In this document: piece after piece, positions 6,989-39,302 of the stretch
How positions within the stretch are numbered: the first letter of the stretch is position 1
Layout of the letters: every line of letters starts with the position of its first letter
Assembly: GCA_032718475.1 (NCBI GenBank)
Contig: JAUCBJ010006450.1
Location: forward strand, 1-64,000
Length of the DNA stretch: 64,000 nucleotides
Reading direction: 5' to 3'
Source of the DNA: Nemertoderma westbladi
Taxonomy: Eukaryota; Animalia; Xenacoelomorpha
Notes under the pieces: model-generated
Database searches by the model: none
What the model saw: only the letters and a program-made list of their open reading frames with translations
Told to the model about the DNA's origin: nothing
Program-made: the position numbers and the translations under genes

Positions 6989-7246
6989 GCACCTAGGCCT
7001 ATAATACTGTAATACAGTAATATGTTAATAACATAGGCTACCGGAAACTGAAATAGTCCTCAAGTCCTGTAGTCAGTCATACCATACAATCATACTACAG
7101 TACTAGGCAGCTAGGCCCCTAGTCAACTAGTTACTGAGTTATTATACAGTTATAAATTTGTGTATTATTAATCGCTTATTGTTATTCACCTACAACTGAC
7201 AACTACGATTCCATTCAACTGTATATGTAGAATCTTCAATCGCAAA

Positions 7247-17200: not shown

Positions 17201-17675
17201 CCGTGCTAGCATTAAACCAACCTGGAAGCAGTTAGTCCAATAAGGAGGCCGGATTGTAGCCCTATCGTTTGCCCAAACCTCAAATTATTACCTTATATGG
17301 TAATGGTTCACGTCCCTGGCCGCTGAATGGCCAGGACAGCGTCCCTATATGATAGCCCTACTGATGCTAATATCAGCAAGCACAAAATCCAGGGTCCGAA
17401 TAAACTTGCTACCCTGGGACTATCTACATATATCCTAATACAAAATTACGTAGGTAGGGCTACATACTATACAAAATGGATGGATGCAAAATATATGGGC
17501 GTTTTAACTTCCTTACCTAAATGTCACCGCACTGTGCCTTATCTAAATAATTATACTGCACAACGGACTAATATTACGTACAGTATAACGGACTAATATT
17601 GCATACTGAAAACGGACTAATACTGCATACAGTATAACGACTAATAATGTGGATACAGCGCCATATACCGTAACA
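14263..17675 (-). repeat. 3' LTR (2201 bp net, with a 1212-bp insertion at 15887-17098)
   Basis: Matches 32405-34526 plus 39152-39227 with only a few substitutions and short indels; ends TGATAAAC...CCGTAACA on the + strand. Confidence 0.95.
15887..17098. mobile_element. Non-autonomous element (Helentron/DINE-like or Crypton-like) inserted in the 3' LTR
   Basis: Absent from the other LTR (empty site ATTAACAGCATG); ACA repeated at both junctions; ends GTGGGGCCTTCGCGCAGCACG ... CTTCGTGGCTCGCCCC; (GACAGAAC)n microsatellite near the 3' end. Confidence 0.8.
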
Positions 17676-18164
17676 CCGCTCCAAGGGAAATCATATAATG
17701 TTTCCCTCCAATTGTAGAAGAGTATAAGGTGATGTATACAAAACAAAATAAATTTCTTCCAACCAATCTAAATAACATAATAATTCTACTATTTACAAAT
17801 ATTGCCATAGATATTGCATAATGAATTGCATACAAATTAAATTTACAAAATATTATCTCTCTCATTGTTTAACGATTATTACATACAAATTAAATTTACA
17901 AAATATTGCTTCTCGTTCATTCTTACTACATAATGATTACTACATACAAAATCAAATATAAAAATTTTGCTAGGGCAAGTGAAAGGAGTAAGCCAAACCC
18001 GCAGGTTTGTCTCCCCAATCACTTCCTTCGCCTCTTTCATAATATAAATTCAAATAACTCAACTAGTGTATACGAGTCTAGTCGAAAATTTTCAAATGCT
18101 ACAATATACATCAGAGCGAAGATGATGTATATATCTAGAGTCTGTCGCCCTGTGCTATAATGTA

Positions 18165-19310
18165 TTATCGACCCGCTCCTGGGTTCTTTGGGCTCGCTCC
18201 TCTCTTCCGCCCCCTTCCCAGATACACTAATCTACCTCCAGTCGACTCCGTTGACGGCGTCCGTGAGGCGTCACTCCCCGGAACCGGCGACGACGTTCCC
18301 TGAGCCCCGACAGATTCTCGGCTGGTACTTCTCCCTCGGCCTCGTCCCAATTGTCGCGCTCCCGTGGTCGCTTCCGCCAACTCTTCCTTCTGCAGTTGCA
18401 CACGCGCTTTCTCCGACGCCCCCTGCGCCTTGCGCTGCAACCGTTGAGCTTCTATAATTGAGTGGTAGTGGTCGTCCTTGACTTGACGCTTGTCTTGGAC
18501 CTCTCCTCCTGGTTCTTTCCGCGAGCCTTGAGCTCCAGCGGTCGTCGCTGTGGTCGCTGCGATCCTTTGTTCCTGTATCCTCTCGGCGGTCAATGAACCC
18601 ACTGGCACATGAGTCAACAAGAATTCGTTGCGGTATTGTATAGCCGCCATCCTCCAATCACCTCGCGCGCGTACCACTTTTCTAGTCTCCGTAAATACAC
18701 CCTTCGTAATGCGATCGCAAATAGCAACGAAGTTCCATGTGTACTTATTGTCCATGTTCAATTGTCTGAAGTACTCTCGAACTACGATAACTCCAGTGTT
18801 TTGTGGAAGGTCTTGAGCAGTTAGGATGAGCTCCTGATATTGTGGTAGCGATTGTAGATATGGCTTGTACGCAACATGCGATGGGTCTACCGCCCAAAAC
18901 CCATATCCCGCTTTAAATGGTAACCAACGCATCTGCGCTTGAATATGGTAATCGGCCACACCCTCCCACTTATCTAACATCTCCCGAAGTAGGTTAGCGC
19001 TATGGTTTTGAAAGGAATCATCTCGCAGCTGACATCTCGCGCTACGATGTCCCTTTACCCCACAATATCCACATTGAGAAATGAAGACGGTGCACGTGTG
19101 AAACGAATGGTCGGTCTCATTACACCAACGACAGACTTTATGTGCCGCCTCCACTACCGCGTCGCACGACTTTAGATTGTGCCTTGTGCTGCCGCACAAC
19201 TTGCACCTACGCGCTTGTGGAAACCAGGCCCTCTCGTATATGAGGTCTCCAATCGGTTTCGCACTTCCTTCCTTCCCAATGTCTAATACGATGTCGTCCT
19301 CTCCAGTCAA
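18165..19310 (-). CDS. Extra ORF, C-terminal part: three CCHC zinc knuckles plus RGRG-rich tail
   Basis: CKLCGSTRHNLKSC, CRWCNETDHSFHTC, CGYCGVKGHRSARC; GRGRGR and GRGRKRG. No ATG before the knuckles; the frame is open from ~19455 and overlaps the upstream ORF in the -1 frame. Confidence 0.8.
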   Translation of the reverse strand: MTGEDDIVLDIGKEGSAKPIGDLIYERAWFPQARRCKLCGSTRHNLKSCDAVVEAAHKVCRWCNETDHSFHTCTVFISQCGYCGVKGHRSARCQLRDDSFQNHSANLLREMLDKWEGVADYHIQAQMRWLPFKAGYGFWAVDPSHVAYKPYLQSLPQYQELILTAQDLPQNTGVIVVREYFRQLNMDNKYTWNFVAICDRITKGVFTETRKVVRARGDWRMAAIQYRNEFLLTHVPVGSLTAERIQEQRIAATTATTAGAQGSRKEPGGEVQDKRQVKDDHYHSIIEAQRLQRKAQGASEKARVQLQKEELAEATTGARQLGRGRGRSTSRESVGAQGTSSPVPGSDASRTPSTESTGGRLVYLGRGRKRGASPKNPGAGR

Positions 19311-19363
19311 CGGTTGTCGATCCGGAACAAAGTAAACATCCTCGCCCTTGTCCTCTATATCCT

Positions 19364-21874
19364 CTATATTTCCTCCCGCGTTCGTTTCGGATATGTCTTC
19401 TCCACCGGAAGATCTACTCCGAACACCTCTACTAACGTTTCCGGCCAGCCCTCCTTAACAGGTCTATCAGCCTCCGAGTGGAAGGGAGTACCAAACCCGC
19501 GGGTTTGATTCCCGAACCACTTCTCCAAAGCTTCTGGCGTCGGATATTCCATCGACGGTCGGTCTCCCAAATCTCCGATGTTCTGTCGATATACTCCTTC
19601 GAATATCGCTAATCCTCTCCTAACCATCGACGTATTCTCTAACGATTGGTTGAAGAACGGGGTTAAGAAACGCTTCATCACGTCGGATTGGATTCCCCCT
19701 TTCGAGCGAACGTATTGATCTCCTCCGAATACCAATGGATGACGCTTCAAAACTCGCGCAACGATATCCGCTAATAAACAAGTCACCGTGTTCGTCTCAA
19801 GCACCAAATAATATTGTAGCGACGCACGGGGTGGCGCGCAAATGTTCCAATACACTAACGCTTGCCGCTTGAAGTGGGATTTGAACTCCGCTCCCGGTGG
19901 CGTGTTGTATTCGCCATACGCCTCCTCATACTTCTTTTGCGTCTTTAACTTAAAGTCCCAATTATACAACAAGTGTGCTATAAAGCCCATACCAGTCTTG
20001 GCAGAGTTGGGATACTCCCTATAAATTCCAATATCCTGTGCCCATAGCAACAATAGCTTGGTGTCGACAAACGGTCTCGGCAATCTATCTTCCAGATCAG
20101 TCATGGCGTTGAAGTCACTCTCTAAATCGCTCTGGACTCCCGATCCCACCTTGACGTAATCTTGGTTGAGAATAGCCTCTCTAACTTTCTTGGGTAGCAT
20201 CCTGGCGTCGATACGCTCCGCTCCGTGCATACCTCCTCGCCTGCATACCTCCAAAATCTGTTCCCTAGGATCCTTCCCTTTCCGATATTGTGTCGTTATG
20301 ATGGGCTCCGGTCTCTCTCGATCCGCCCTCACACGCATAAACACATGAGTCACACCATCGGCCGCACGAATTTGAATACACTTGCTGGTCAAACATTCCT
20401 GATGGGACCCTCCTTCATTGTCGTAGAACATCACCCTCCAATCTTGCAGTGATTCCTCCGTCTTCCTCCACTGACGCTGAATCTCGTCTGATGGGGTCCA
20501 CATGCGCTCGATCACCTTGTGGTCATCATATCGGGTATAAGAACCCTTCCTCCTCAGCCACGTCTGGTCTACCTCCTCGTCATCTGGGAATGTAGCCACC
20601 GCGACCCATACCTTGATGTACTTATCCAACCATCCGAATAACTTACTCTCCTTCCCCGGAGCTCCAATCTTATCCAACGTGTCATAATCTGTGATCTGCA
20701 TTGGGACATCACGCAAGAACTTCGCGCATAAAACTTCCCGTAGACAGTCAACGTTCCAATGGTCCGCCATTCTTACCATCGGCAAGAATCGTATCGCTTC
20801 TCGCGACTCCGGATGATCTACTAATATCGCAGGTTCGGTGCCGTCGGAATAATACACCGGTCCGGGTTGAGATACGACCTGTGGAACAAATCCGGTCACT
20901 CTCCTCGTCTCCTCTTGATGTCTATCCGCGGTCTTATTATACTCCGCTATCCTGTTCTCAAATAACTCTTTCGCCTTCGCCGCTCGCTCCTCCTGCCGCA
21001 ACGCGTCTATGTCGTCCTGATGCTCAGGCGTGAGGCTTCTCACTCGGTGAGGTGAAGTAAACGTAGTCCAGGGACTCGAGAGCTCCAAACCCGCGGGTTT
21101 GGTACCCGAGTCCCGCGCCGCTTCGCGCCGCGCCTCTAGATCCTTGTAGGCTCGGTACAGCGAAATGGCCGCTGCCGTCTCTATCAAACTGGGTGTCGAA
21201 CAGGGTTTAATCTCCGTATACGGATCTAATGTCGTAACGGTCGGCGTAATAGGTCTCGGAGGTCGCTTTCCGCTGAAGTCGATACTGATCATCGGGTTGC
21301 TCATCGGGTAACCTCCCTCGTTATATCTAAGGAATTGGTGAGCTGGACATCGCGTTAATATCGGTTCCGGATGTTGCTCGTCTAATCGGTCGGGAATCGC
21401 CACGTCCTGTTTATTCATGCATTCACCACACTTGTAGAAGAGCTTGTACACGCTGAAGACTTTCGGCGTCTCCTGATCCTCACCTCGAGTCCTCCGGTAC
21501 AGATGCATTCCGTCGAACTGGTCTCGGACTGCAGGTAGAGGCTCCTCATGTCGTAAATACATATTCATATGGTATAGTCGTGCGATTTCCTCGTCCGGAT
21601 CTGCGCTAATGTCGCACACGTCCAAAGCGAAGTCGTAGGGATACCGCGTGCGATACTCTCTCCGCAAGACTTCCATCCGGTCCCCCAACGCTCTCATTCT
21701 TTCTCTCCGTAATTCTTTATCATAACTTGGTTTGTACTTTCCATTTAGCTCCATCACGGACCGCCCATGGTAGTAAACGTTCGAATCTTTACATCCCGGT
21801 CGCGCGAACGGTAGCTCCGCCTCCTCTCTGGCAGTAAATCCTCTGCGCGGTTGCGCTCTAATATCCCTCTCCAT
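19364..21874 (-). CDS. Extra ORF, N-terminal part: DnaQ-like DEDDy 3'-5' exonuclease (WRN/EXD/Mut-7-like) with an N-terminal CxxC..CxxH motif
   Basis: 836-aa open frame. VMFYDNEG (ExoI), CIQI, LPKKVREAILNQDYVKVGSGVQSD (ExoII), FVDT, TGMGFIAHLL and W...YYLVLE (ExoIII-like) occur in the order of the WRN exonuclease motifs. Confidence 0.72.
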   Translation of the reverse strand: MERDIRAQPRRGFTAREEAELPFARPGCKDSNVYYHGRSVMELNGKYKPSYDKELRRERMRALGDRMEVLRREYRTRYPYDFALDVCDISADPDEEIARLYHMNMYLRHEEPLPAVRDQFDGMHLYRRTRGEDQETPKVFSVYKLFYKCGECMNKQDVAIPDRLDEQHPEPILTRCPAHQFLRYNEGGYPMSNPMISIDFSGKRPPRPITPTVTTLDPYTEIKPCSTPSLIETAAAISLYRAYKDLEARREAARDSGTKPAGLELSSPWTTFTSPHRVRSLTPEHQDDIDALRQEERAAKAKELFENRIAEYNKTADRHQEETRRVTGFVPQVVSQPGPVYYSDGTEPAILVDHPESREAIRFLPMVRMADHWNVDCLREVLCAKFLRDVPMQITDYDTLDKIGAPGKESKLFGWLDKYIKVWVAVATFPDDEEVDQTWLRRKGSYTRYDDHKVIERMWTPSDEIQRQWRKTEESLQDWRVMFYDNEGGSHQECLTSKCIQIRAADGVTHVFMRVRADRERPEPIITTQYRKGKDPREQILEVCRRGGMHGAERIDARMLPKKVREAILNQDYVKVGSGVQSDLESDFNAMTDLEDRLPRPFVDTKLLLLWAQDIGIYREYPNSAKTGMGFIAHLLYNWDFKLKTQKKYEEAYGEYNTPPGAEFKSHFKRQALVYWNICAPPRASLQYYLVLETNTVTCLLADIVARVLKRHPLVFGGDQYVRSKGGIQSDVMKRFLTPFFNQSLENTSMVRRGLAIFEGVYRQNIGDLGDRPSMEYPTPEALEKWFGNQTRGFGTPFHSEADRPVKEGWPETLVEVFGVDLPVEKTYPKRTREEI

Positions 21875-22636
21875 TATGTTACGCGTATATACATATATAT
21901 ATATATCCCAATAAGTGCCGTTACGTAACCAATTACACTGTGGGTAAATCAGTTAGATGTCGCCGAAGGACAGACCTCCCGAACCCCCCGCCGCCTTCCA
22001 GCAGTTCAGGTTCGACTCTCTAGATCCCGTCTCTTCCTAACTAACTATCCTCTAACCTATTCCCATGCATAGCGCAAAAACTTTGGAGATAAACTGGCCG
22101 TGACCAACTCACTTTTTGATGCCCAAACTACTCCCATTACTCGTACTAAACTACAGTAGTTAGAAAGGACCATAGCCACAATACTCGACTATACCAAACC
22201 CACAGGTTTGATAATCGAACATCACACATCCTGCAAACTACTGAGTGGGGTCCATGTACGCCTCTGGTGCTACTAACCTTTAGCACCTTAGTTGCACTGT
22301 TGGCACCAATCTGTGGAAGTTGCTAAACTCAATTTACACTCCTACATAATATAGCCATCACCATGGTTTCTAAATGCTATTTTCCAGGCTTCACGACTTT
22401 TCAAATTACTGTTTATCTATAGACGAATTCTAAAACGCGTCTATACACAACGTCTGGAATTGTCTTGGGTTCACTTCTAATTTTAAAATTTTCTAATTTT
22501 CCAAAAATTTTTGAAAATAAAATTTTGTTTTGATACCCACTAGACAAAACTCAACGCAAATCACCACAACCCCGCTCCTATGCATCTCCTTGTATTTGCA
22601 TACGAGGAATGCATACGAAGTGAGTTGCGTCCAACA

Positions 22637-25600
22637 CTAACTCTGTTTTGAGGCAGGAGACAAATTATAATCTCCCGTCTCGATACGTGTCTCCTCTAAT
22701 AACACAATATCTTGGACCGGTCGGTCCAAGGTGTGTAAACCATTAGTTTTACACTTCTTTGGGTGCGGACACTTGCACCTAATTTTCACAGTGACTGTGC
22801 GCACTATGTTTTGCACGTCTGGGTGTGTGTGCAAGATCACTCCAGTCTCCCAATATTTTCTCTTGACAATGGGTTCGGTTATCAACACGTAATCTCCCCT
22901 TTGGAGACTCCGAACCGTTTTGTACCACTTTGTTCTGGTGGATATGGTGGGAAGATAGTATTCCCGCCAATATTCCCAGAATGTGTACGCGACAAATTGA
23001 GTCATTTTCCAGCTTTTACGACTATATAGGTCGGCACTAATGGGTTCTGATGCCGGCACAAGAAATGCTGGACTCTGCATTAGCAAATGATTCGGCGTTA
23101 ATGCAACACCGTCTGGCAACATAGCTATCGGCCTCGAGTTTAGGGTATGCTCGATTTCAATGAAAGCTGTGACCAGTTCGTCGTCGGTAAGTTGTTTGTT
23201 CACAGGCAATGTTTTGGCAATGGCCTGCTTCACAGAGCGAACCAAACGCTCCCAACTTCCTCCTCTCCAAGGACTTTCTGGAGTATTGAATCTCCATTCT
23301 ACTCGTTGCGGCAAAAGTGCTGCAGAAATTTCCTTATTCTGTGCCGCTTTATGAGCCGCGTTCAACTCGCTATTCCCTCCGACAAAGTTTGTACCCTTAT
23401 CGGAGTAAAACGCCTTTACTAGTCCTCTCCTGGCCATAAATCTCTTCAAGGCCAGGAGCAGAGATTTGGTCGACATGTCTGCCACACGCTCGATATGTAT
23501 GGCTCTACTCGCCATACATGTCAGTAGCAGACCCCATCGCTTGTGGGTCAGCCGTCCACTCTTTGCTTCAATCGGACCAAAACAGTCCACCCCTGTATTC
23601 GTAAAGGGTGGGTCATATGCCTGCACTCTCGCCTCCGGGAGTTCAGCCATCTCCTGTTCCAATACTCTGGCGTTCACCCTTTTGCAAACCAGACAGGCGT
23701 CGTACATAGTGCCTACTGCCCTGCTTGGCTGCAATAGAATGAATCGCTGTCTCGCTGCCGACAAACAGTGTAACTTTCCCGCGTGATGCAACCTCTTATG
23801 TATATCCCATAGAATCGCTCTTTGCAATTCTATTGGGTGACTAGGGATTATCACTGGGAACCGAAACTGTGAGTTTATGTCGACAGTCTGGATTCTCGAT
23901 CTATGACAAATCAAACCCTTATGGATTAACGGACTCCATTTTCTAAGGGGTTTATAGAGAACTAGTCGTTGAGCCGATAATAGATGGAATTCTTTAGGGA
24001 AGGCACACATTTGATAATGCTTCAAATGCTTTAATTCCGCTTGATCAATCTCATCCTCTGTCAGAGGTTGTTTCAATTTCCGAATTCGCTCACTATTGGT
24101 GCTCAATGGTTCTCTCAAATGTTTCGAATGTTTTAAACAAAGGTACGAAACGTATCGGCTTAACCACGCAGTTCTTTTACAAATTGTCAGCCAAGAGGCA
24201 GACGAATTTAGTAATTTTTCATAAACACTGCATGACTCTAATGCCAGCGACGGTTGTCCGCTAACCAATGGAAGTTTCGAATCCAAACCCGCAGGTTTGG
24301 AAACCAAAGGATCCATTGTGTCGGTCAATTTCTGTCCGTCACTTACCAACTGTGACTGCTGTCCAGTCTGTAAGGGTGGTTTTATGTCATAACTTACCCT
24401 TCCGGACCTAGTAGTCACGTAAGTCTGTTGGTCTGACAGGTCTCCAGGCCGCTCCAATGACTCTTCAGGCCGCTCCAATGACTCTTCAGGCCGCTCCAAT
24501 GACTTAAGTTTGGCTTTAGACTTCGACTTAGAGACTTTCTCCACCTTGACTTCTGCATCTTCAGGCATCGGATTGGTCACTATCTTTAGTTGCTCTGGCC
24601 AATGTTCCTGTGTCCTCGTTAGAAAATCAGGTCCATGCAACCAAAACTCCTGCGACTCTTCCTGACAGAATTCCGCCGGCATTGCGCCTCTCGAAGTTAT
24701 GTCGGCCGGGTTCAACACTCCCGGACAATGTCTCCATTGTTCCTTCGTCGAAAAGTCAACGATCTGAGCGCGTCTGTTGGCCACAAATGTCTTTAGTGCA
24801 ATATTGTCGGCCGCAATGTATACTAACACCAAGGATGCGTCCGTCCAATAGAATAAGGTCAATGTCGTGTCTAATTCCTCTGTTATTTGCTTACTTACCT
24901 CGACCGAAACTACAGCCGCCTGTAACTCTGCACGAGGGACAGTCATGTATTTGACCGGCATTGTCTTTGATCTAGAAGTCACAAAGGCCGTCTCAAACTT
25001 GTCCTGACTTACCTCTCGGCGAAGGTAGGCTACCATACCAAAGCCGGTGTCACTTGCGTCACTGAATAGATGGAGTTCGAGATCAGCTGGAAATACCAGC
25101 TGATTCGGAAAGTAGGAACGGGGTACATCTATGTTTTTCAATAGATGCAACTCGGCTTCCCACTCCCTCCACTGCTTTGCATGTATAGGAGATATTGGTT
25201 CGTCCCACTCTACGTCGGACAACCAAATTTTCCTCATGCACGCTCGTGCCTGTAATATAACCGGACTGATAAAGTTCATCGGGTCAAATAGTCTACTTAA
25301 AGTCGATAAGCAAATCCTCTTAGTCAAAACTTTGTCTGGGCTACTGGGCTCAAATCTAACTCTTACCTGGAACTTATCTGAGTTCGGGTTCCAAGCGAGT
25401 CCCAGTACTCGCGCCATGGGGATTGGTTCTACCCCCAATTCTATGTCTCCGCTCCCGCGATCTTTTACCGGGAACGACTCTAATAGGGCCTCCGAGTTAG
25501 TAGTGAACTTGGTCAGAGGAAATCCCCCTGTAGCCAAGCACTCATGCAGGCCGTGAGCCACTTCTATGGCTTGTTCCGCTGTGTCCTTGGACACCAATCC

Positions 25601-28600
25601 GTCGTCCATATAGAAGTTTCTCAAGATGGACTCGATCACCTCTATTGGGTACTTACCAATCTGGGCTGTTGCCGTTTTCTTTAGAACGAACAGCGTGCCA
25701 TTCGGACTATCGCGGGCGCCAAATATCCTAACGTACATTTGGTATGTAACCACTGGGCCGGATAAGTCTTCATTCTCGTACCAGAGAAAGCGAAGGCTAT
25801 CCTGGTCTGCCTTACAGGCTCTTACCTGGTGGAACATCGCCTCGATGTCACAAGTAAATGCGAATCGCCGCTGTCTAAAACGTAACAGTATTCCAATCAA
25901 ATAGTTATTCAGGTTGGGACCATCCATCAACTCTGAATTCAGGGACATACCTCTATAGACTGCTGCGCAGTCGTTGACTACTCGGACTTTGTCAGGTTTG
26001 TCAGGGTGAGTCACATAGTGGTGTGGAAGGTAATAAGTCTGGTCTGTCACTGAGTCAGGGTCCTCTACCTTCCCAGCAAATCCCTTGGCGAAATAGTTGT
26101 TGATCTGGGCGCAATACTTCTCCCTAATGTCTGGATTCTTCAACAACCGAGCCCTTACTCCGTTCAATCTTTTCAAGGCTAAGTTGTAGTTGTTCTCCAA
26201 CTTAGGTGGTTGTCGACGCCACAACATTCCAACTTCAAAATGTCCAGTCGGTAGCAGACGTATGGTATCTTCCATCATCTCCAACGACCGCTTCTCATCA
26301 GTAGACATGGCTAGGTCATATCCACCGGGTTCCATTGCGTCCCTATCCAGCCATTCGGCGGTTCTGGCTCCTGTCTCGAGGTCCTGGCGTATCAATTCCT
26401 TCTGTAATTCCTCCCCACTGTACTGGAAAATGTCTAGGTCTCGATATTTAGCCACTTGACCCTGCACTATGTCTGTATAAGTCAAAACGTTAGTCAGATA
26501 GGTAGCGTGGGCCGCTGAACCAGACCCACGGGTCTGATAACAGTAGTCCTCGGGTTCACTATCTGTCCGGTCATTGTGCAGTGGTTCCGACAACCTAACA
26601 TTATCGGGAATCAACTCCTCGTCCGACTCGCTAAAGTCACTATAGTGGTCAATACAGGTTCTCCTAAACTCGTCTATGTCTGGTGGTTCTACTAACGGTG
26701 GTTGAGTTATAGGCTGTAATTCGTCGTATCTGTCCATTGGCTTGTCGCCACCTGTAAACTCATAAGACATGGGTACTCGTGTATACCAACCTAATATAGT
26801 CCTATGGGCATGCGGTCCATTGACATGCGGCTCAGCTGGTCTCGTTTCCCATATTTGGTGTGCGATCAGCTGTTCTGCACCAATCAACATAGAAACATTC
26901 CTATAACCTACCTGATGTCTCGGTATCCTGAGCTTGTCAAAATACTCCTGTGCTATGGGACTCATCGGCGGCACCTTACCTAATTGCCTGCCGAACCCCT
27001 TCATAGCTAGACACTTAAATCCGTCCAATGGCAAAGCTTTCCGTTCTTGTCGAGTATGTTGGTCTCTCGGAAGTAGGGAATCTAGTTCTACCGAAATTCT
27101 GTGTCCCTTGAGGTCTCCTACCCCATGCATAGACTTCAACTCTATTTGGATCTCCTCGGCGTCCTGGAAGCTAGAAACGGCTCTCGCCACTTCCTCGTCG
27201 ATATAGGATAATGTGGACGCAGTGTCCAACATCACATATATTCGCTTCGATCCCTTATCGCCAGTGAGTTTCACCGGAATCACGCTAAATATTTCCGACG
27301 TGGCCGATGATAAATACGTCCGCGCGCTGGTCGATGAACTATCCGCGGTGAAACCTTGGCAGGTCACTTCTCTCGCGCTCGACTCGCCATCCTCGTCCGA
27401 CGAACCTGGTTGGTAACCATCGTCCTGGATGCCAGTGTACGTATTCCTCCTTATCGATATGGGTTCTTTGCTCCCCTTCCTGTGAGGATTTCGCTGTAAG
27501 TAACGGTCCGTTGGGGTATGGAAATCCGCATGTAGCAACTTGTGATGTAGTCTGCCGCATTCCATGCATCCGTCCTTGCTGTTCGGGCACTGCCGCCGTA
27601 CATGACCTGGCGCAAGACATGCCCAACAGGTGTCCAACGTCCGCACTTGAACTCTTCTCTGTTCCGAATTTAATTCTTTGAACCGTCTGCAACTATCTAA
27701 CTTATGATCGTCAGATCTCACCTCCTTTAGTAAACAGTATTGGCAACCTACAAATCCATCCGGCAACTCCTGTTGCTTTAACCTAGGTCTATCTAACCGC
27801 TCACCTGACCATACTCGCGAGTCTGATCTAAAGGCTGGGGTACTCGAATTATATCTGTCTACTGAGTTAAATGTCACAGTGGTCCTGTCATCGTCAAAAC
27901 TTACCATAGACTTACCGGTAACAGGTTTAGACTCCCTCATATTCTCTTCTGAGAAGTTTGATTTCATCTCTGCTACTGCGTCTGTGGCTATCATGTCATG
28001 AATATGCTGAAGTGTCAACACCTTACCTTGGCCCTCCAACTTATTCTCTAATTTGCGCCATTTCTGTCTGTAACGCATGTTTAGACGTCTTATTACGCTC
28101 TTTAAAACTTCGGCGTGATCACCATGATGAGGTAGATTCACCGTCCTCAAGATGTCCAATGCGTTCGAAATAGCGTTCGCTAAGTTCAACAGCTCTAACG
28201 GAGTTGTAATCCTTCCGCCCTTACCCAAGTCTTCTACTATCGACTGCGCCATCTTCGTTTTATTCCCGTAGATGTCACTAAGCGTCTTCATCGCTAACTC
28301 GAATGCTCTTTCGTTGCCGACGAAGTTATCAGCAATGGCTCTAGGTTCTCGATGGAGCATTTGAAGCAAATAGTTGAACTTCTCGTTGGGAGTAAAGGTG
28401 CTGTTGGTTAGCTGCTCGTCGACATAGGTTTTAAAGGTCCTCCAATGCTTATGGTTGCCCATAAACCTCTGGGGTTGTTGCGTCGGCAGTCCTTGCCTAG
28501 CAGCAAACTTACCTATGTCCCTAAGGGTTGCGTCGTTCCGGGTTAACAAATGGTTTAGTTCTGCAGGGTTGTTAAGTCTGGTCCTTTCCCGGTGGTTCAA

Positions 28601-30325
28601 ACTTACCTGCTCCGCGTCGGTCCTTCTTTCCTTATAGTTTCGGGACTTCTGACGTCTCATGTCTTCCTCTTCATCGCTTGACTCGGTGTCAGTCCTTAGC
28701 GCTCGCGATGGTTTGCGTGCCGAGGCCCTGACCCAAGCCTCCTCAATAAATCTTTCAGCCGAATTTTCGAAATTGGGATTATGGATATTCGGGACAGGCG
28801 TCCTTACCTGAGGTCTATGTGGTATAGTCTCCTCCGATATGCGTACTCGTTGACTAGGCTGGACTTTATCTAACTCAGGCCTGCTAGGATTTGAATTACT
28901 TCTTACCTGGGCTGCTTCCTTTAACCGTAGGTTGCTAAGCATGTCCGTTATAGGTTGGATGTGCGGCGATATAGCTTGCGCTAAACTAGCACTTAACTCA
29001 TCTCTCGTAATAAATTCCTGGCTAGGGTTCTGTTGTATAGTCGGCTCTATCTGAGTAATCCGCTGTCTCTCATATAATCCCTCTTCCGGTTTAACCCGGA
29101 AGTTCTCCGTCGAACTGGGTCGGCGCTCTGTCCGCGTATTCCAAACCCGCGGGTTCGGTTCGCCAAGTACTCGTCCTGTCGGAGTTTCTCTAAACTCTCC
29201 GTTGTCGCGTTCGGTATATAGTGGTGCGGTGTTCCGATGACGTAGATCCTGAGCGATGGGTGAAGCACCAATACCAACTGGCGTGCGATATGTAGAGAAC
29301 GGTTTAGCGATCCGTGTACTCGTAATAGCTGGACCGGGTATAGGAATTCTGGTCATCGTCGACTCGCGTATAGTCGGAGTTCTCGCTTCCTGTTCGGCCT
29401 TCTGCAGTGCGAACAGTTCTCGCAACTCAGTCCCTACACTCGCCCCACATTCTTCGATCATTCGCATCCCCTTCTCGGCGATTTCGTTCGCCTTCCTAGT
29501 CCGTTCTTCGCTCTCTAAACTTAATCTCGCACTTTCCAACTGTGCCAGTTTACGTTCTTCTTCTTCCCTCGCTCGTCGTGCTGCGCTCTCTTCTTCCACT
29601 CGCGCCTTTTCTTCATACAATGCGCGTCTTCTTTTTTTGATCTCGAGTTCGCGTTCCTTGCGTCCGCGTTCGAGTTGAAGCTCGCGCTCCTTCTGTTCAC
29701 GATCGAGTTTCTTGCGTTCGCGTTCGGCTTGGAGTTCGCGTTTCTTCGCTTCCTGTTCGCGTTCGAGTTGGAGCTCGCGTTTCTTCGCTTCCCGCTCGCA
29801 TTCAAGTTGGAGTTCGCGTTCTCTCTGTTCGCGTTCGAGTTCCTCGCGCTCGCGCTCGGCTTGAAGTTCGCGTTCCCTTTGCTCGCGTTCCGCTCGCTCG
29901 CGCTTACTTATCTCTTCCAACTCTCGTAACTCTGCGTCCAACTTACGTGTGCGCTCCCGTTCCCGCTCGGCTTCCTTCCGTGCTTCCTGTGCACGCAAAA
30001 CTTCCGCCTGTTGTTCGTCCAGTCGGCGTCTTCTTTCCTCCGCCGAGTTGTGAGAAACAAGGGATCTAGCACATATAACTTTACCTCGCGCGTGACTAAC
30101 CTGGGAATCGCCGCTGTCTCTAGATGCATCGTCGGGTGGAGTCAACGTCCTCTGTTGGATGTTCTCCGTCATCGGTAGCACCTGACCTGGTACCACCACT
30201 CCATTCTGCATCAGCCAGCTAGTAACTTCCCTCTGATAACGGCGCTCTTCTTTATCTTGCGTCTCTTCACGCTCCACTAAGTCTCTTAACTCTGCGTCAC
30301 TCACTTGAGTCGCCTTGATGCCCAT
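22637..30325 (-). CDS. Bel/Pao Gag-Pol polyprotein
   Basis: DUF1759-like gag (FMGNHKHWRTF, EKFNYL); three Cys/His knuckles ending CMECGRLHHKLLH; protease LDTAS; RT YLPHH, DIEAMFHQV, FYMDD; RNase H FSDAS, PRAEL, WTDAS, NPAD; integrase HHCC, VDCFGP, SDKGTNF, WERLVRSVK; C-terminal FWEYWREYYL. Confidence 0.97.
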   Translation of the reverse strand: MGIKATQVSDAELRDLVEREETQDKEERRYQREVTSWLMQNGVVVPGQVLPMTENIQQRTLTPPDDASRDSGDSQVSHARGKVICARSLVSHNSAEERRRRLDEQQAEVLRAQEARKEAERERERTRKLDAELRELEEISKRERAEREQRERELQAEREREELEREQRERELQLECEREAKKRELQLEREQEAKKRELQAERERKKLDREQKERELQLERGRKERELEIKKRRRALYEEKARVEEESAARRAREEEERKLAQLESARLSLESEERTRKANEIAEKGMRMIEECGASVGTELRELFALQKAEQEARTPTIRESTMTRIPIPGPAITSTRIAKPFSTYRTPVGIGASPIAQDLRHRNTAPLYTERDNGEFRETPTGRVLGEPNPRVWNTRTERRPSSTENFRVKPEEGLYERQRITQIEPTIQQNPSQEFITRDELSASLAQAISPHIQPITDMLSNLRLKEAAQVRSNSNPSRPELDKVQPSQRVRISEETIPHRPQVRTPVPNIHNPNFENSAERFIEEAWVRASARKPSRALRTDTESSDEEEDMRRQKSRNYKERRTDAEQVSLNHRERTRLNNPAELNHLLTRNDATLRDIGKFAARQGLPTQQPQRFMGNHKHWRTFKTYVDEQLTNSTFTPNEKFNYLLQMLHREPRAIADNFVGNERAFELAMKTLSDIYGNKTKMAQSIVEDLGKGGRITTPLELLNLANAISNALDILRTVNLPHHGDHAEVLKSVIRRLNMRYRQKWRKLENKLEGQGKVLTLQHIHDMIATDAVAEMKSNFSEENMRESKPVTGKSMVSFDDDRTTVTFNSVDRYNSSTPAFRSDSRVWSGERLDRPRLKQQELPDGFVGCQYCLLKEVRSDDHKLDSCRRFKELNSEQRRVQVRTLDTCWACLAPGHVRRQCPNSKDGCMECGRLHHKLLHADFHTPTDRYLQRNPHRKGSKEPISIRRNTYTGIQDDGYQPGSSDEDGESSAREVTCQGFTADSSSTSARTYLSSATSEIFSVIPVKLTGDKGSKRIYVMLDTASTLSYIDEEVARAVSSFQDAEEIQIELKSMHGVGDLKGHRISVELDSLLPRDQHTRQERKALPLDGFKCLAMKGFGRQLGKVPPMSPIAQEYFDKLRIPRHQVGYRNVSMLIGAEQLIAHQIWETRPAEPHVNGPHAHRTILGWYTRVPMSYEFTGGDKPMDRYDELQPITQPPLVEPPDIDEFRRTCIDHYSDFSESDEELIPDNVRLSEPLHNDRTDSEPEDYCYQTRGSGSAAHATYLTNVLTYTDIVQGQVAKYRDLDIFQYSGEELQKELIRQDLETGARTAEWLDRDAMEPGGYDLAMSTDEKRSLEMMEDTIRLLPTGHFEVGMLWRRQPPKLENNYNLALKRLNGVRARLLKNPDIREKYCAQINNYFAKGFAGKVEDPDSVTDQTYYLPHHYVTHPDKPDKVRVVNDCAAVYRGMSLNSELMDGPNLNNYLIGILLRFRQRRFAFTCDIEAMFHQVRACKADQDSLRFLWYENEDLSGPVVTYQMYVRIFGARDSPNGTLFVLKKTATAQIGKYPIEVIESILRNFYMDDGLVSKDTAEQAIEVAHGLHECLATGGFPLTKFTTNSEALLESFPVKDRGSGDIELGVEPIPMARVLGLAWNPNSDKFQVRVRFEPSSPDKVLTKRICLSTLSRLFDPMNFISPVILQARACMRKIWLSDVEWDEPISPIHAKQWREWEAELHLLKNIDVPRSYFPNQLVFPADLELHLFSDASDTGFGMVAYLRREVSQDKFETAFVTSRSKTMPVKYMTVPRAELQAAVVSVEVSKQITEELDTTLTLFYWTDASLVLVYIAADNIALKTFVANRRAQIVDFSTKEQWRHCPGVLNPADITSRGAMPAEFCQEESQEFWLHGPDFLTRTQEHWPEQLKIVTNPMPEDAEVKVEKVSKSKSKAKLKSLERPEESLERPEESLERPGDLSDQQTYVTTRSGRVSYDIKPPLQTGQQSQLVSDGQKLTDTMDPLVSKPAGLDSKLPLVSGQPSLALESCSVYEKLLNSSASWLTICKRTAWLSRYVSYLCLKHSKHLREPLSTNSERIRKLKQPLTEDEIDQAELKHLKHYQMCAFPKEFHLLSAQRLVLYKPLRKWSPLIHKGLICHRSRIQTVDINSQFRFPVIIPSHPIELQRAILWDIHKRLHHAGKLHCLSAARQRFILLQPSRAVGTMYDACLVCKRVNARVLEQEMAELPEARVQAYDPPFTNTGVDCFGPIEAKSGRLTHKRWGLLLTCMASRAIHIERVADMSTKSLLLALKRFMARRGLVKAFYSDKGTNFVGGNSELNAAHKAAQNKEISAALLPQRVEWRFNTPESPWRGGSWERLVRSVKQAIAKTLPVNKQLTDDELVTAFIEIEHTLNSRPIAMLPDGVALTPNHLLMQSPAFLVPASEPISADLYSRKSWKMTQFVAYTFWEYWREYYLPTISTRTKWYKTVRSLQRGDYVLITEPIVKRKYWETGVILHTHPDVQNIVRTVTVKIRCKCPHPKKCKTNGLHTLDRPVQDIVLLEETRIETGDYNLSPASKQS

Positions 30326-31044
30326 AGCAGCCAGTTCTCCGTCCTAACTCGTCGAAATCGCTCCGATAACTCGCGGTGCTCCAACAAGGCTGCTAAAACC
30401 CTGTCGTAAATCCTCGTCGCCACGTCGCTCGACTGAGACTCCACTGCCTTCTTCGCTAGGACTGCAAGCTCCTCCGTCTGCTTGAATAACGCTGAGTTAT
30501 ATCCTCTTCTAACCTCTACTAACTCTACCCTCCCGATGTTCGCTGAGTCGGCTAACATCTTCCTTACCTTATCCGTCGTCCGAGTTATATGTCCGGCGTG
30601 CGCGCGAAGTTTCTTCTTTATCACGATATCGAACTCTCTATCACTCACCTGACTTACACTCGGTGGACTTGAAGGATTATTTCGGGAACTACGGGTACTC
30701 CTTGCAGCCGTCGGGACCACGGCACTTACCATACCCACAGGTCTGGAAACCGGGCTCCGGGCTCTCGCTTCTGCTACACTACTCTCCCTATCACTCACCT
30801 CTGTCCGGGCTGCTGTACAGTCCTTCCTATCAGTAGTGGTAGGGGATCCTAATACTATTACTTGAGGTTGCTGTTCTTCCTCACTAGTCACTGTCTCGTC
30901 CTCCTGTTCACTTACGTCAGCGTCGCTCGCTGCGTCGTCATAGTCGGCATTGTCGTCAACAGTAATGTTTACGCTATCGTCAGTCGGCGGTCCGGCCGCC
31001 GTCTCGTAGCTGTCCTCTAGTGCCTCCTTGTCTGAGACACTCAT
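30301..31044 (-). CDS. N-terminal Gag segment, separated from the polyprotein by a -1 frameshift
   Basis: ATG at 31044 (MSVSDKEALED..., acidic then helical); overlaps the start of the 2562-aa frame. Confidence 0.7.
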   Translation of the reverse strand: MSVSDKEALEDSYETAAGPPTDDSVNITVDDNADYDDAASDADVSEQEDETVTSEEEQQPQVIVLGSPTTTDRKDCTAARTEVSDRESSVAEARARSPVSRPVGMVSAVVPTAARSTRSSRNNPSSPPSVSQVSDREFDIVIKKKLRAHAGHITRTTDKVRKMLADSANIGRVELVEVRRGYNSALFKQTEELAVLAKKAVESQSSDVATRIYDRVLAALLEHRELSERFRRVRTENWLLWASRRLK

Positions 31045-34000
31045 AGTCCAAATAATGTTTGCCTTCCGGCAAAATATCTCGCAAAGGTTCGAGATATAAT
31101 TATAATTTAACCGAAATACGGTCAAATTATTTGTCAAATAATCAGTTGGTCCAAAATGTCAAATAAATTCGCAATGCAATATTGTGAATTTAATGGGGTA
31201 TATAGTTATAGCAAATACTAACACAATATTTAAACAAAAATATTATTATATAGCTACTATATAGTATTAAATACCGGTATAGCACAAAATAACTCTGAAT
31301 CTAATACAAAATATTCAAAATATACTTGCCGCCCGAATATTTCTAATTTTATATATATAGCTCTAATCAACGTAATTTTAATTTCAAATATTATATGTAT
31401 CCACTAGCGCGTGGCTACATCTTCGGGTTGCGACTCTCTCTAACTCTCTCTCTAACTTGAGCGATTCAAAAAACCATGGCCGGCTAAACCTAAATATCCT
31501 AACTAATAAATTGAGTTCAGCTTCGCAGTTAAACAACCGATAATTTTTTACTGCTTCCACAAACACACTGGTGCCAACAGAACAACTAACCTTGTTTGCT
31601 GTGAGATTCCACGTCCGCGTCCAAAGATTCAGGCCCTTCGCTGATTGCAAACCGAACCCGCAGACCCACACGAACCCCAAACTCAGAAGTTCCGTCTTGC
31701 CATGTATCTCCAGATGGTATAAAATAACTAAGCGGTTACCTAACATACCGGTACAAAACTCTAGAATTTTACAAATAATTTTGACCGAAACTGAATTCTC
31801 GCAAACCTAGCTAAAATTTTCAAAAAACTTACTAATTACAGTTTGCCCTAAGGCCTAAGGAACTGCTGTATTCGCAATTAGCAAAACGTACTACCGTACA
31901 TCCACTGTATGCAGTACAGTAAGTAAAACAGTACACCAACCTAACAGCCTAATGATACTGTATGTGGTACGGCAAACAAATGTCCTTCTACCGTACGCAG
32001 TAACAGCAATCAGCCTAATGTACTACTGTACTATCGTACGCAACCAGTGAATACAGTAATCTAAACTAACAGCCTAAGAATACACTCAATGTCTTACTGT
32101 ACGCTAGCCTATAGCCTACAGCAGACGATCACGTGCTCTAATTTATTACTTAATACTGTGATACTACTAATCAGCCTAAGAATACACTATTGACCGCTGC
32201 AAGCAACAGCCAATAAACGCGTATTACTGATACGAAGTATCAGTAATCTAAACTAACAGCCTAAGAATACACTATTGACTGCTGTAAGCAACAGCCAATA
32301 AAGCGCGTATTACTGATACGAAGTATCAGTAATCTAAACTAACAGCCTAAGAATACTCTATTTACTGTACGCTACAGCCTACAGCAAACAAAAGCGCGTA
32401 TTACTGATAAACAACCGCGACCTCTATACTAACAGCAGAACTGTTGAACAGACCAATACCCGTTAATATCCTTCTGCCAACCTAATAAGCTCTCGCCTAT
32501 CCAATAAGACACAAAGACTGCTCTACTGTTAAGTAAAGGGGATCAGGAGCGTGCTATTACTAAATTGTAAGGGTTGCTAAATACAAAACCGTTACCGTTG
32601 GATGGCGCTAATCTGCCGTCTGCTAATATATTTTACTAAATTTACACAACTCCTGCAAAATCGCTTGTTCCTTTCTCTACCTATTGCTCAATAGAGAGCT
32701 AACTGTTCGAATTTATGAGCCACGCAGGAATAACCAAAACAATAAACCCGAGTCGGCTCCCTAAGCTTACTTAAGACGAGTGCGAGAGGCCTTGCACTCA
32801 GAGTATTCTTACGCCTAATTCTATCACTATTAAAGCACGCTATTACCTACGTCTTTCTAATCGCGAATACTGGAGGTTCCCTAACATAATGTGTGAATGC
32901 GAGAATATTTAAAATAATCAAAATGATACAGTAACTGTTTCTACGTGGATAGTACCACTCCGAGTCTAAAACTGCCCGCGGCTGGCTTTAGGCCAGCAAA
33001 ACTACTAGCGTATCGTGCGTACCGAATAGTGCGTTCTAGCTGATTGCCCGCTAATGCAAATAACCGCTCAGCGTGAATAGTTTACAGTACACTAATTATT
33101 ACCTTAGCTACTCTCCGCTATGCTGCGTACTAATTCTTAATTTTTACTAATTAATTACAGTCACAAATATTTAACAGCGTACTAATTACTAAGAGTTCCA
33201 GAATACGTAATTCTAATTTATCACGCAACAGGTTTCGCTAGTAATAGCCTAAATTGCCGTATTACTTTGACCTAATCAGTAACTAATTATTGTAACTAAG
33301 AAATAGAAATCAATCAAAGGGAAAAGAGCGCCTATCTAAGCATTCGTAATCTTAGGCACACTTCAATAACACACCAATCAGCGTTAGAAATCACAGTTTA
33401 CAATTGTGCAATTCACTACTCGTACTCCACACTCAACGTTATAATACGCGCAGGCCTCTCCCGGATACATCTAGGATTCCTAACTAACCCAATTCCTGCC
33501 CCCCTAATACTAAATAGAGACAAAACCTGGATCATCAGCCCCCTAGATACTGTACCAGCGATTGGTCTGCGTGCCGCAGTGCAAGATACCCGCCCGCAAC
33601 GGTGACCCTGGCCAGCGTAGCCCGCTTTGAATCCTCCGCTCTCTCCTAGTCGCTCAACCCCCCGATGCGCCCACCGCCCACTGGCACCTTAGCCCTCCAT
33701 GATGCTAATAGCTACCGTAGCGGCGCATGCAAATCACAAAGTCTGACAGTCTCAGAAATCCCTTAGGATTATTGCGCAGAAAGGAATCACATAGAACCAT
33801 TAATCAAAAGGTAGAAATCATAGTTCAGTTGTAATTAGCAGTAATCGAAGGAATTATTGAGAAACACAAGCAAAGTAATCGCACTAGCAAATCATTCCAA
33901 GAAATTAATCAAAATTAGCAAATTGCAGAAAATACGATATCCTAATACAAAATTAGAGACAGCTCAGCAAGTAAATTGTAACAGGGGTGTGTCATGTGAT

Positions 34001-34526
34001 GAGTAAGGGTATACAACATTAACAGCATGAACATTAAGGTTCTACCGGCACACCGCCAATTTATAGGTGATCCGGATGGGGTGATGCAATAAGGTGACTC
34101 AATCGCTCTCCCATTGGCTCTCCAGTCCGTGCTAGCATTAAACCAACCTGGAAGCAGTTAGTCCAATAAGGAGGCCGGATTGTAGCCCTATCGTTTGCCC
34201 AAACCTCAAATTATTACCTTATATGGTAATGGTTCACGTCCCTGGCCGCTGAATGGCCAGGACAGCGTCCCTATATGATAGCCCTACTGATGCTAATATC
34301 AGCAAGCACAAAATCCAGGGTCCGAATAAACTTGCTACCCTGGGACTATCTACATATATCCTAATACAAAATTACGTAGGTAGGGCTACATACTATACAA
34401 AATGGATGGTTGCAAAATATATGGGCGTTTTAACTTCCTTACCTAAATGTCACCGCACTGTGCCTTATCTAAATAATTATACTGCACAACGGACTAATAT
34501 TACGTACAGTATAACGGACTAATAAT

Positions 34527-37500: not shown

Positions 37501-39143
37501 AGGAAATCCCAGCCATCAGATTCAGTTCCACATCAGAACAAGTTTGCACATTTGTCTCAAGTGAAATTTTTAAGAAGTCATTACCAAATCAATGCTTGTT
37601 AGATAACCTCAATCAAATTGCTAAGTGTTACAGCAGAGAAATTGAAGATCTGTTAACATTACTACTTCATAAATTTGCAAAAGGTTTTGAAAGACAGAAG
37701 GGTGCAATTTTTGGATTTGGAGAAAATAAAGAAGCGGATACAGGCACAGTTCTAAAAATTGCAAGTGCTACAGAAGAAGAAGTAACTAAGCTCGATCAGA
37801 CGATAATCCATAATGTTGGTGAGGAAAGAAGTGTTGGATTTGTCAACTATGAGATTGGTATCAGGGGGAAACGCTGTCTGGAAGCTGCATCACGTAAGAT
37901 GATATTAAATAAGGCCAGTGATCTGATAGCACAATGTAATCCTGCAGATTTAAGCAAATTTAGAAAGCAATCACAAGAAATAAAGGAACATAAGCTCAAT
38001 TGGAATGCACGTATGAGAGAACTTCAAAATATTGGATACACTGAAAAACAGGCTTTAAATACAAAGTTAGAGGAAACCAAATTAAATCTTCTGTCTTTTC
38101 TTAAGCACCAACAACCCATGGGACCATTTACTAACTCACAAGAGGTTAAAAACTTCATCAGTTGCTCGATTGATAATAAAGATGCAAATGATCGTCTATA
38201 CAGGGAAGTTAAATATGCCAGGACTACTTCTTTATCCCTCCCAGAAAGTTCTTCCGTTTTTAGATTAAGGAAAGATGGCAAAAATCTGGGTACAAATCAC
38301 TATGCAGACAATCTAATTCAGTATCTGGATCAGTCAAATAGTGCATCTACAATTAGTATGGCAGATCTGCATAATGTTTTAACAGGCTTGACAAACATGT
38401 CAAGTAAACCGTCATCAATAGGGCATATTGTAGAGAAAACTGTTGAAACATCTGGCATGAAGGTTGATATAGGAGACCATGTAATTGCATATTGGAGGGA
38501 TGACAATGACCTGCAATTAAAATGGTACCTAGGTGTTGTTGAATGTCAACTTGGAGATGGGAAATTCCTAATTTCATATCTCAAGAAATCAGATAAAGAT
38601 GGGTGCAGTTGGGTGTATCCAGAAGCAGCTGAGGTACTAGAAACATTGGAAGAACAGATAATGATGACACAAATTGATGTGACCTACCACTGCACAACAA
38701 GAATAAGATGTAATGTCAGTGGTGTCTTGGTAAAAAAGCTCAATGAGCTTTTAGCAGAAATGTAACTCGAGAGTCAGGACTAATTACAACATAGATACAT
38801 TTTATTATATCTACAAAGTACAAAACTTTAAAAATGTATTGCATTTTATACCTTATACATGTTCATGTTCATCTTGTTTAGGAATGCCAACACAGCTTCT
38901 AAATTAGCGCACAAACATCATTTTATTAAATAGTGCTGCTACCCGCTAAGATTATAGTGGACCATGATGACTGCCGTAAATAATGAGGTAATCACCGAAA
39001 CTTTGATATGATAGGTAGGTATCCTAAAAAATGGATCCTACCAAATATTTGCACGTTTTTCATCACCAGTAGACTAATTAACATGTTTTGGACAGGTAGG
39101 CAACCCCTTAAAACCCTTTTCAAAAAATAACATCCCCCCCCTA
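34527..39143 (+). mobile_element. hAT-superfamily DNA transposon (4.6 kb) inserted in the 5' LTR
   Basis: TIR TAGGGGGAGATGTTA / TAACATCCCCCCCCTA; 8-bp TSD CTAATAAT/CTAATATT; absent from the other LTR; ~193 bp subterminal tandem repeats at 34628, 34821 and 35014. Confidence 0.88.
35488..38765 (+). pseudogene. hAT-like DDE transposase with a stop (35911-35913) and a frameshift near the N-terminus
   Basis: YSSDGS, VMTDSTAHN, CNIH (CxxH), HRFNRI and HNVGEERSVG motifs in the 927-aa frame. Confidence 0.8.
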
Positions 39144-39302
39144 CTAATATTGCATACTGCATAACGGACTAATACTGCATACAGTATAACGACTAATAAT
39201 GTGGATACAGCGCCATATACCGTAACATAGGGGCAGCCCTAAATATCAGCTGGAGACAACACATGACAAACGCCGAGCTTTTATGGTACAATACCACCTG
39301 TA

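Follow-up and report, generated by a model that had tools for sequence, protein, structure and literature searches.

Nine evenly spaced hairpins in a 19-kb Bel/Pao retrotransposon of Nemertoderma westbladi, candidate docking sites for an element-encoded zinc-knuckle protein

What role do recurrent, nearly invariant hairpins play along the RNA of a very long retrotransposon? The question is raised by a 64,000-nt stretch of the Nemertoderma westbladi genome (assembly GCA_032718475.1, contig JAUCBJ010006450.1, positions 1 to 64,000), hereafter the window, which carries a Bel/Pao long terminal repeat (LTR) retrotransposon on its minus strand. The internal region of this element contains nine copies of a 17-nt stem-loop core (Table 1), seven of which had been listed in a first-pass annotation as a repeated cis-acting RNA signal for packaging, export or self-recognition. 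The hairpins very probably function at the RNA level. The preferred reading, to which we assign a probability of about 0.42, is that they would serve as docking sites for an exonuclease-like zinc-knuckle protein encoded by the element itself and would thereby license a very long RNA.

The seven sequences listed initially were all confirmed at their positions, and looser matching added the copies at 27809 and 30729. In a leave-one-out scoring, with each copy judged by the matrix of the remaining eight, eight of the nine copies exceeded every non-site on both strands of the window, and the weakest (27809, score 16.3) was surpassed by one non-site (16.4). The pattern CARACYYGYGRGTHYGG, fitted after the copies were seen, gave 13 matches with at most one mismatch, from nine sites of which four are read in both directions; 100 shuffles averaged 0.07 matches, with a maximum of one. 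A motif-blind search for recurring hairpin families returned the same motif as top family, with eight dispersed members in the internal region; the best families in the rest of the window were AT-rich and had four to five members. No copy was found in the LTRs or in the remaining 49 kb of the window with its further transposons. Within the window the motif is hence confined to the element, as initially noted, and is not equally frequent in shuffled or non-element DNA. Two copies are non-coding (17993 and 22194) and seven are coding, with every codon phase in use. Within four open reading frames (ORFs), seven matches contrast with 0.38 under a synonymous redraw (maximum three in 1000), a conservative null since the protein is held fixed and already carries the motif peptides. 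The view that the constraint does not lie on the protein also holds, as protein constraint leaves a repeated, element-restricted hairpin unexplained. The half-site cluster reported at about 31652–31678 fared differently: the G-U-rich UGCG hairpin located there scores 4.4, with at least 79 non-sites higher, and the covariance model misses it at E up to 10, so that it was rejected as a tenth copy. A comparison with Rfam 15 gave three matches at E 1–4.5, none of them at a motif site.

Orientation, fold and covariation point to RNA. All nine copies are in sense orientation on the element, and the eight asymmetric copies all point the same way. RNAalifold predicted 12 pairs for the nine sense sequences (−11.5 kcal/mol) and six pairs for the antisense sequences (−6.6 kcal/mol). 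In the sense consensus, a lower stem of four pairs is joined through a 1x3 internal loop to an upper stem of eight pairs, which is capped by the YGYG loop. Across the 12-pair structure, 86% of the 108 cells pair and 14 cells are changed on both sides; either value was reached in none of 500 shuffles, a control which ignores the relatedness of the copies and uses a structure derived from the same alignment rows. The covariation expected on the sense strand is thus present, with the caveat that it stems from nine paralogous copies. The compensatory A-U to G-C change at 26520, the G-U at 29141 that is paired on the sense strand only and the c(UGCG)g loop of two copies are all as described in the first-pass annotation. 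The 72 cells of the upper stem include five G-U and no C-A combinations. Loop positions G2 and G4 are kept in all nine copies and are predicted to be exposed, positions 1 and 3 alternate between C and U, and all seven departures from CGCG are C to U on the sense strand, none being G to A. Pairing between left and right flanks is better within a copy than crosswise between copies (permutation p 0.0016); the flanks pair without sequence similarity, and changes in the two arms are paired. Hairpin 4 extends into a long stem that includes G-U on the sense strand (−33.8 versus −22.0 kcal/mol). Two further roles were considered and rejected. Despite the UGUG loops, the hairpins do not suit the Microprocessor, because the majority of stems lack the required length and the loops are too tight. 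A general function of the hairpin ends as splice donors was dismissed since only two of the nine adjoin a donor.

The copies are separated by 1498, 1594, 1109, 2089, 2237, 1289, 1332 and 1588 nt, roughly one copy per 1.6 kb. The range of 1.1–2.6 kb given initially is narrowed to 1.1–2.24 kb, because the two added copies fill the 2.6-kb gap. Under uniform placement of nine sites in the internal region, the probability of a minimum gap of at least 1109 nt is 2.7e-4 and that of a coefficient of variation of at most 0.245 is 1.6e-4. Both values fall further once the blocks encoding reverse transcriptase (RT)-RNase H and integrase are excluded; the original seven copies alone give a minimum-gap P of 0.015. 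The only gaps above 2 kb bridge these two blocks, and a linker hairpin flanks each block on either side. When gag-pol was compared in 50-residue bins with 120 related polyproteins, three of its four copies were located in bins covered by 0, 4 and 22 sequences, and the bin of the fourth (aa 840) was covered by 76 sequences with 15% identity. The initial 550 unconserved residues of gag-pol hold one copy only, and long tolerant stretches contain just a single one. Placement and gaps together suggest selection for one site per 1–1.6 kb wherever the protein allows it, and the even spacing would translate into a site's working range of about 1 kb in either direction.

Table 1 Coordinates of the hairpins, the retrotransposon and its reading frames in the window
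Feature	Positions	Strand	Characteristics
Hairpin 1	17993..18009	−	UGCG loop; 3' untranslated region (UTR), non-coding; extended stem ~17967-18039
Hairpin 2	19491..19507	−	CGCG loop; ORF2 aa 816, near ORF end
Hairpin 3	21085..21101	−	CGCG loop; ORF2 aa 284
Hairpin 4	22194..22210	−	UGUG loop; non-coding, gag-pol/ORF2 interval
Hairpin 5	24283..24299	−	UGCG loop; RNase H-integrase linker, aa 2015
Hairpin 6	26520..26536	−	CGUG loop; A-U to G-C change; protease-RT linker, aa 1270
Hairpin 7, newly found	27809..27825	−	CGCG loop; C-G to U-A change and G-A mismatch; Gag linker before zinc knuckles, aa 840
Hairpin 8	29141..29157	−	CGCG loop; sense-only G-U; unconserved Gag N-terminal region, aa 396
Hairpin 9, newly found	30729..30745	−	UGUG loop; G-A mismatch; ORF0 aa 138
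Degenerate UGCG hairpin, 5' leader	31652..31668	−	not counted as copy
Bel/Pao LTR retrotransposon	14263..39227	−	~19.1 kb minus two nested insertions; 5-bp target-site duplication CCCTA
5' LTR, ~2.2 kb	32405..39227	−	interrupted by 4.6-kb insertion 34525-39142; motif copies: 0
3' LTR, ~2.2 kb	14263..17675	−	interrupted by 1.2-kb insertion 15887-17095; motif copies: 0
ORF0, 285 aa stop to stop	30301..31158	−	5' of gag-pol, different frame
gag-pol ORF, 2568 aa	22637..30343	−	DUF1759, zinc knuckles, protease, RT, Peptidase_A17, integrase, DUF5641
ORF2, 862 aa	19364..21952	−	probable DEDD-type 3'-5' exonuclease-like domain
ORF3, 429 aa stop to stop	18165..19454	−	three CX2CX4HX4C knuckles, no preceding Met

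The candidate reader is encoded by the accessory frames ORF2 and ORF3. Among 1.84 billion representatives, the sole relative of ORF2 was a protein (P0121) related to it through an exonuclease-like domain (27% identity, E 8e-6). Beyond this domain, P0121 carries three CCHC knuckles, which align with ORF3 (pairwise E 1e-6), as does a short aromatic segment; the knuckles of P0121 also match the nucleocapsid of human immunodeficiency virus 1 (HIV-1; E 1e-4). Because ORF3 lacks a methionine before its knuckles and P0121 joins both domains, the two frames probably belong to a single protein, of which ORF3 would form the C-terminal part. In the window copy the two frames overlap at 19364-19454 and differ in phase; other copies differ near the junction. 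ORF2 shows candidate ExoI-III acidic motifs at aa 511, 607 and 715 and a weak PF01612-type similarity. A word-indexed search for further ORF2 relatives returned none among 6717 candidates, and a search started from P0121 returned P0121 only. ORF2 is immediately preceded, at about 21938-21956, by a sequence resembling a branch point and acceptor, which suggests that the accessory ORF is expressed from a spliced mRNA. Six copies lie upstream and three downstream of the predicted acceptor at 21938, and hence three of the nine would stay in the spliced accessory mRNA. The zinc-knuckle/exonuclease protein named as possible reader in the first-pass annotation remains plausible, given that P0121, which the extra ORFs match, combines both parts, an exonuclease-like domain and three CCHC knuckles.

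The mechanism that we propose would start with the formation of the hairpin in the sense transcript, a step we regard as highly probable. A CCHC knuckle protein would then read the exposed loop guanines and the conserved stem, in the way retroviral nucleocapsid knuckles read GGAG, GGUG and UGCG loops. The reader would be the ORF2/ORF3 product, probably made from spliced RNA, and the bound protein would coat the long RNA about every 1.6 kb. Each bound site would act over a limited range, which would select against long gaps and clusters alike, and the coated RNA would be licensed to be completed, exported and protected from host decay. The even spacing and the three copies retained in the spliced accessory mRNA fit coating of the whole transcript better than a classical packaging signal. 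As the candidate signal is short and defined and stands beside its candidate reader, both are testable in vitro.

Several published systems are precedents for parts of this mechanism and not tests of it. Binding of nucleocapsid knuckles to G2 and G4 has been described for HIV-1 tetraloops (PMC7599994), and their binding to a UGCG loop for Rous sarcoma virus (RSV; PMC5035970). The exonuclease-homology domain of Egalitarian contacts stem-loops without the use of its catalytic residues (PMC13186709). The C. elegans element Cer1 encodes its own export factor, CERV, from a spliced mRNA (PMC10309623). With Cer1 and Rev-type systems our element shares an accessory protein, probably made from a spliced RNA, and an unspliced RNA rich in splice signals; CERV differs in its putative C4 finger, and the passages on it mention neither an exonuclease nor a repeated stem (PMC10309623). 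The Rev response element (RRE) is confined to an intron of the unspliced RNA, whereas the hairpins lie on both sides of the putative acceptor. Bdelloid rotifer elements have exonuclease ORFs downstream of pol (PMC5408684): the DEDDy ORF3 of the LTR elements Juno and Vesta and of Terminons resembles ORF2 in following pol, and ORF2 has candidate acidic residues at the expected motif positions, with E in the last. These elements do not belong to Bel/Pao, in our element the putative domain precedes three CCHC knuckles, and no repeated RNA signal appears in the respective passages (PMC5408684).

The proposed mechanism has to be weighed against a number of adverse points. The covariation comes from nine paralogous copies whose shared descent can inflate it, with a structure derived from the same alignment, and the upper stem taken alone gives a modest signal (8–15 of 500 shuffles reach the observed value on four measures, and 265 of 500 on a fifth). 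Folding of the flanks per copy has no strand bias (combined z −3.1 sense versus −3.4 antisense; 18 versus 17 G-U pairs), a flank stem is significant on its own in three of the nine copies only, and the flanks exceed 25 chance matches weakly (p 0.03). The copy at 30729 folds better in antisense, and its sense core has a pairing probability of about 0.25 in a 300-nt context. On the protein side, the exonuclease call is weak (no Pfam match for ORF2, E 0.2 for P0121, Atlas 0.90–0.91), two single-sequence structure models were unusable with a predicted local distance difference test (pLDDT) of 33–35, and sequence searches of the PDB retrieved no exonuclease for ORF2 or for the ORF2/P0121 profile and no significant match for the ORF3 knuckles. 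Knuckles are also carried by Gag, the association of motif and accessory ORFs rests on one family, and in one assay the UGCG loop was irrelevant to Gag selectivity (PMC5035970). Lastly, the LTR parts of the RNA are free of the motif, the first copy appearing about 3.3 kb after the presumed start; simple coating leaves this unexplained, and none of the coating models accounts for it.

Relatives of the element were sought in four of the seven listed runs (X1, X3, X4 and X5, with X2, X6 and X7 left out). The family is abundant in X1 and X3. No run with matches was labelled as RNA, X4 being RNA only by conjecture. A 164-nt contig from X4 and a 281-nt contig from X5 match solely 17967-18039 (73 nt, five differences), and both flanks are unalignable. 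X1 and X3 show the same loose ends at the 3'-UTR hairpin, with further loose ends clustering at 17956-17979 and 18035-18039, and these limits coincide with the predicted extended stem of hairpin 1. Four substitution sites are listed in 141 nt; the two inside 17967-18035, U/C at loop position 1 and A-U to G-U, both preserve the structure. Only one of the five differences in the X4 and X5 contigs is among those listed. These contigs may represent sister families that conserve the hairpin or acquired it by recombination. Conservation in sister families, a point raised in the first-pass annotation, was seen at one of the nine sites, the sole one checked at base level, and distant Bel/Pao elements lack the motif. 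Only two peptide signatures of the motif occur in the 224,071 residues of 120 Bel/Pao polyproteins. A metagenome scan yielded distant loci only (19 of 43 stretches, 34–42% identical). The covariance model had no match below E 4 in the 117 kb of these 19 loci, four of which have one match with two mismatches, on the antisense strand, and the top family of a motif-blind hairpin search in them has one to three members. The 19 loci contain neither the motif nor a detectable relative of ORF2 or ORF3; most of them are so short or interrupted that a downstream ORF could have gone unseen.

A second unusual feature of the transcript is the abundance of splice-donor words in gag-pol. Of all hexamers on the sense strand of gag-pol, GGTAAG shows the strongest enrichment, with 16 occurrences against 3.5 expected from synonymous permutation (family-wise 0/500). 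GGTAAGT occurs nine times against 1.1 and strong U1-pairing sites seven times against 1.4, the words being located at 24347-28907 on the minus strand. The excess in gag-pol is limited to the sense strand, and ORF2 and ORF3 have no excess of GGTAAG. The distant loci contain 0–2 such words in 18 of 19 cases and six in a 16.7-kb locus (L016). The words may be planted U1-binding sites, or they may provide the acceptor at 21938 with alternative donors. An RNA in which many donors precede an acceptor would need help to leave the nucleus unspliced, similar to Cer1 with CERV. U1 sites can suppress premature termination (telescripting), and the GGTAAG sites may alternatively serve this purpose; a depletion of poly(A) signals was not seen in gag-pol (1 versus 1.2).

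Two alternatives retain the RNA and replace the reader. In the first, which we consider unlikely, the hairpins would be dispersed packaging signals read by the nucleocapsid knuckles of Gag, contacting the growing capsid and helping to fold the 17-19-kb RNA. Signals of this kind are known from MS2, satellite tobacco necrosis virus (STNV) and the pregenomic RNA of hepatitis B virus (HBV). Like the element, these systems have multiple small hairpins with a shared loop along the coding strand and inside ORFs; the element differs in being an LTR retrotransposon, whose few, evenly spaced copies share an almost unvarying 17-nt stem-and-loop core. Gag contains a canonical CWAC knuckle at aa 906 together with two variant knuckles, and nine sites on the full-length against three on the spliced RNA could still confer selectivity. 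The loop type also matches known nucleocapsid ligands: the retroviral packaging signal Psi (stem-loops SL2 and SL3 of HIV-1, SL-C of RSV) shares the tetraloop G2/G4 and the CCHC proteins (PMC7599994, PMC5035970), and the UGCG loop of RSV SL-C is identical to that of two of the nine copies (PMC5035970). A given Psi loop, however, occurs only once, within a cluster in the leader, whereas the hairpins are repeated over 12.7 kb, mostly in coding sequence, and the leader holds none of the nine and at most a degenerate copy. Moreover, ordinary Bel/Pao elements share the Gag domains but not the motif, and the 19 distant loci have no comparable hairpin family.

The second alternative, in which the element would imitate the docking sites of a host RNA-binding protein with a role in export, germline transport or antitermination, is likewise improbable in our estimation. 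All RNA-level evidence applies to it equally, and the enrichment of donor words in gag-pol suggests that host RNA machinery is recruited from coding sequence. The motifs bound by Smaug and Roquin, the iron-responsive element (IRE) and the histone stem-loop, as generally described, do not fit, and a match at the motif sites was lacking in Rfam. The absence of the motif from the other 49 kb of the window and its transposons also speaks against a host reader, and signals of the Egalitarian type have no overt sequence pattern (PMC13186709), whereas the core of the motif is conserved in sequence.

A third possibility, a palindromic site in double-stranded DNA that is bound every 1.6 kb by an element or host protein and keeps the locus unsilenced, has only a slim chance of being correct. 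The core is a near-perfect 16-bp palindrome, the even spacing suits a limited range in chromatin and the folding energy of the flanks has no strand bias. Sequence-specific anti-silencing encoded by an element also has a precedent in VANC of the Arabidopsis VANDAL transposons, which combine an element-encoded factor with short element-specific motifs (PMC5735166). A DNA site would leave unexplained why the asymmetric copies are unidirectional, why the loop departures are C to U on the sense strand in seven of seven cases and why arm changes are paired in flanks that lack sequence similarity. Furthermore, the LTR promoter has no copies, and no DNA-binding fold was found in ORF2 or ORF3. The DNA motifs bound by VANC are described as non-coding and often tandem in a DNA transposon (PMC5735166), in contrast to the RNA-polar hairpins, of which seven of nine are coding and which lie at least 1.1 kb apart. 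Taken together, the hairpin set would work like dispersed packaging signals or self-recognition and differs in position from Psi, RRE and VANC.

Signals for reverse transcription (pausing, re-priming or strand transfer) that would aid the copying of an unusually long genome are very improbable. The regular 1-2 kb spacing, the confinement to the internal region, the accessory 3'-5' exonuclease-like ORF and the atypical primer-binding region would suit them; known internal plus-strand primers are generally purine tracts and not hairpins, and among 15 of 107 joints none ends at the motif core. An origin as neutral relics, either chance matches or remnants of small repeats, is close to refuted. 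Single exact 17-mer matches do occur by chance in large collections, as in 32 loci of viral contigs that have one site each and were treated as chance (these contigs contained no pol relatives); here nine frame-preserving, evenly spaced sites share a single orientation.

Docking of the accessory protein remains the preferred reading, and it can be extended to an RNA-level self-recognition code, a rather unlikely idea. A private hairpin about every 1.6 kb would mark the RNA, the exonuclease-zinc-knuckle reader would shield or license only RNAs tagged in this way, and planted U1-binding words would keep the transcript from shortening. Such a code, if true, would parallel VANC anti-silencing at the level of RNA, and giant retroelements in general might have adopted it as a solution. 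In a literature search, mostly without subscription journals, no evenly spaced conserved hairpins were found described in Bel/Pao or other LTR elements. The finding bears on how LTR retrotransposons distinguish their own from host RNA and on the roles of extra exonuclease and zinc-knuckle ORFs; should the pair work in a reporter, a compact orthogonal system of RNA tag and reader would be available.

The placement of the element in Bel/Pao (Belpaoviridae) rests on protein domains, DUF1759 (E 4e-9), Peptidase_A17 (E 5e-39) and DUF5641 (E 2e-16), with the order protease, RT, RNase H and integrase and the YMDD of the RT at aa 1578 of gag-pol. Among the polyprotein relatives listed, identity in RT-RNase H is at most 43%, and the named ones are from marine invertebrates. 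In addition to gag-pol with these domains and the integrase, the element shares the TG..CA type of LTR (ends TGT and TCA) and a target-site duplication, CCCTA on either side, with Bel/Pao; it differs in its size of about 19 kb, the 2568-aa polyprotein, the downstream accessory ORFs, the lack of TGG at the LTR end and the dispersed hairpins. The insertion is young because the LTRs are 99.6% identical across their longest block (1624 nt), and the two nested insertions, one per LTR, postdate the integration of the element. ORF0 and gag-pol overlap at 30301-30343 in differing frames in the window copy; this overlap, like that of ORF2 and ORF3, may reflect a lesion, splicing or recoding.

A TGG primer-binding site does not adjoin the 5' LTR end at 32405. 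The first 11 nt past this LTR (32394-32404) are complementary, with one G-U, to a stretch within the LTR at 33441-33451, and a complementarity of at least 11 was reached in nine of 300 shuffles. This is a hint of self-priming of the kind seen in Tf1. The sole TATAAA, about 600 nt upstream of 33441-33451, counts against it. In the 5' leader (32054-32410) there are 86-nt repeats and additional long hairpins; the repeats include a perfect 11-bp hairpin, in the 3' arm of which the LTR-end junction recurs. Before the 3' LTR, at 17676-17712, only a short purine run is present, with a small hairpin just upstream of it.

The 4.6-kb insertion at 34525-39142 resembles a DNA transposon with short inverted ends; its 941-aa ORF has no Pfam match and is unrelated to the 942-aa ORF at 58575-61403. 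The insertion at 15887-17095 in the 3' LTR is 1.2 kb long and non-coding. A LINE-like (long interspersed nuclear element) RT fragment lies at 39306-41514 (RVT_1, E 3e-28), and the Bel/Pao element inserted beside or into it. Other repeats of the window comprise a foldback element of about 160-nt units (13287-14031), 23-nt and 30-nt tandem arrays (44253-47443) and a 63/65-nt array (50500-52270) carrying AACCACCGGTT palindromes that are not related to the hairpin motif. At 7172-12300, a tandem duplication of 2.4 kb adjoins an ataxin-2 SM-domain exon.

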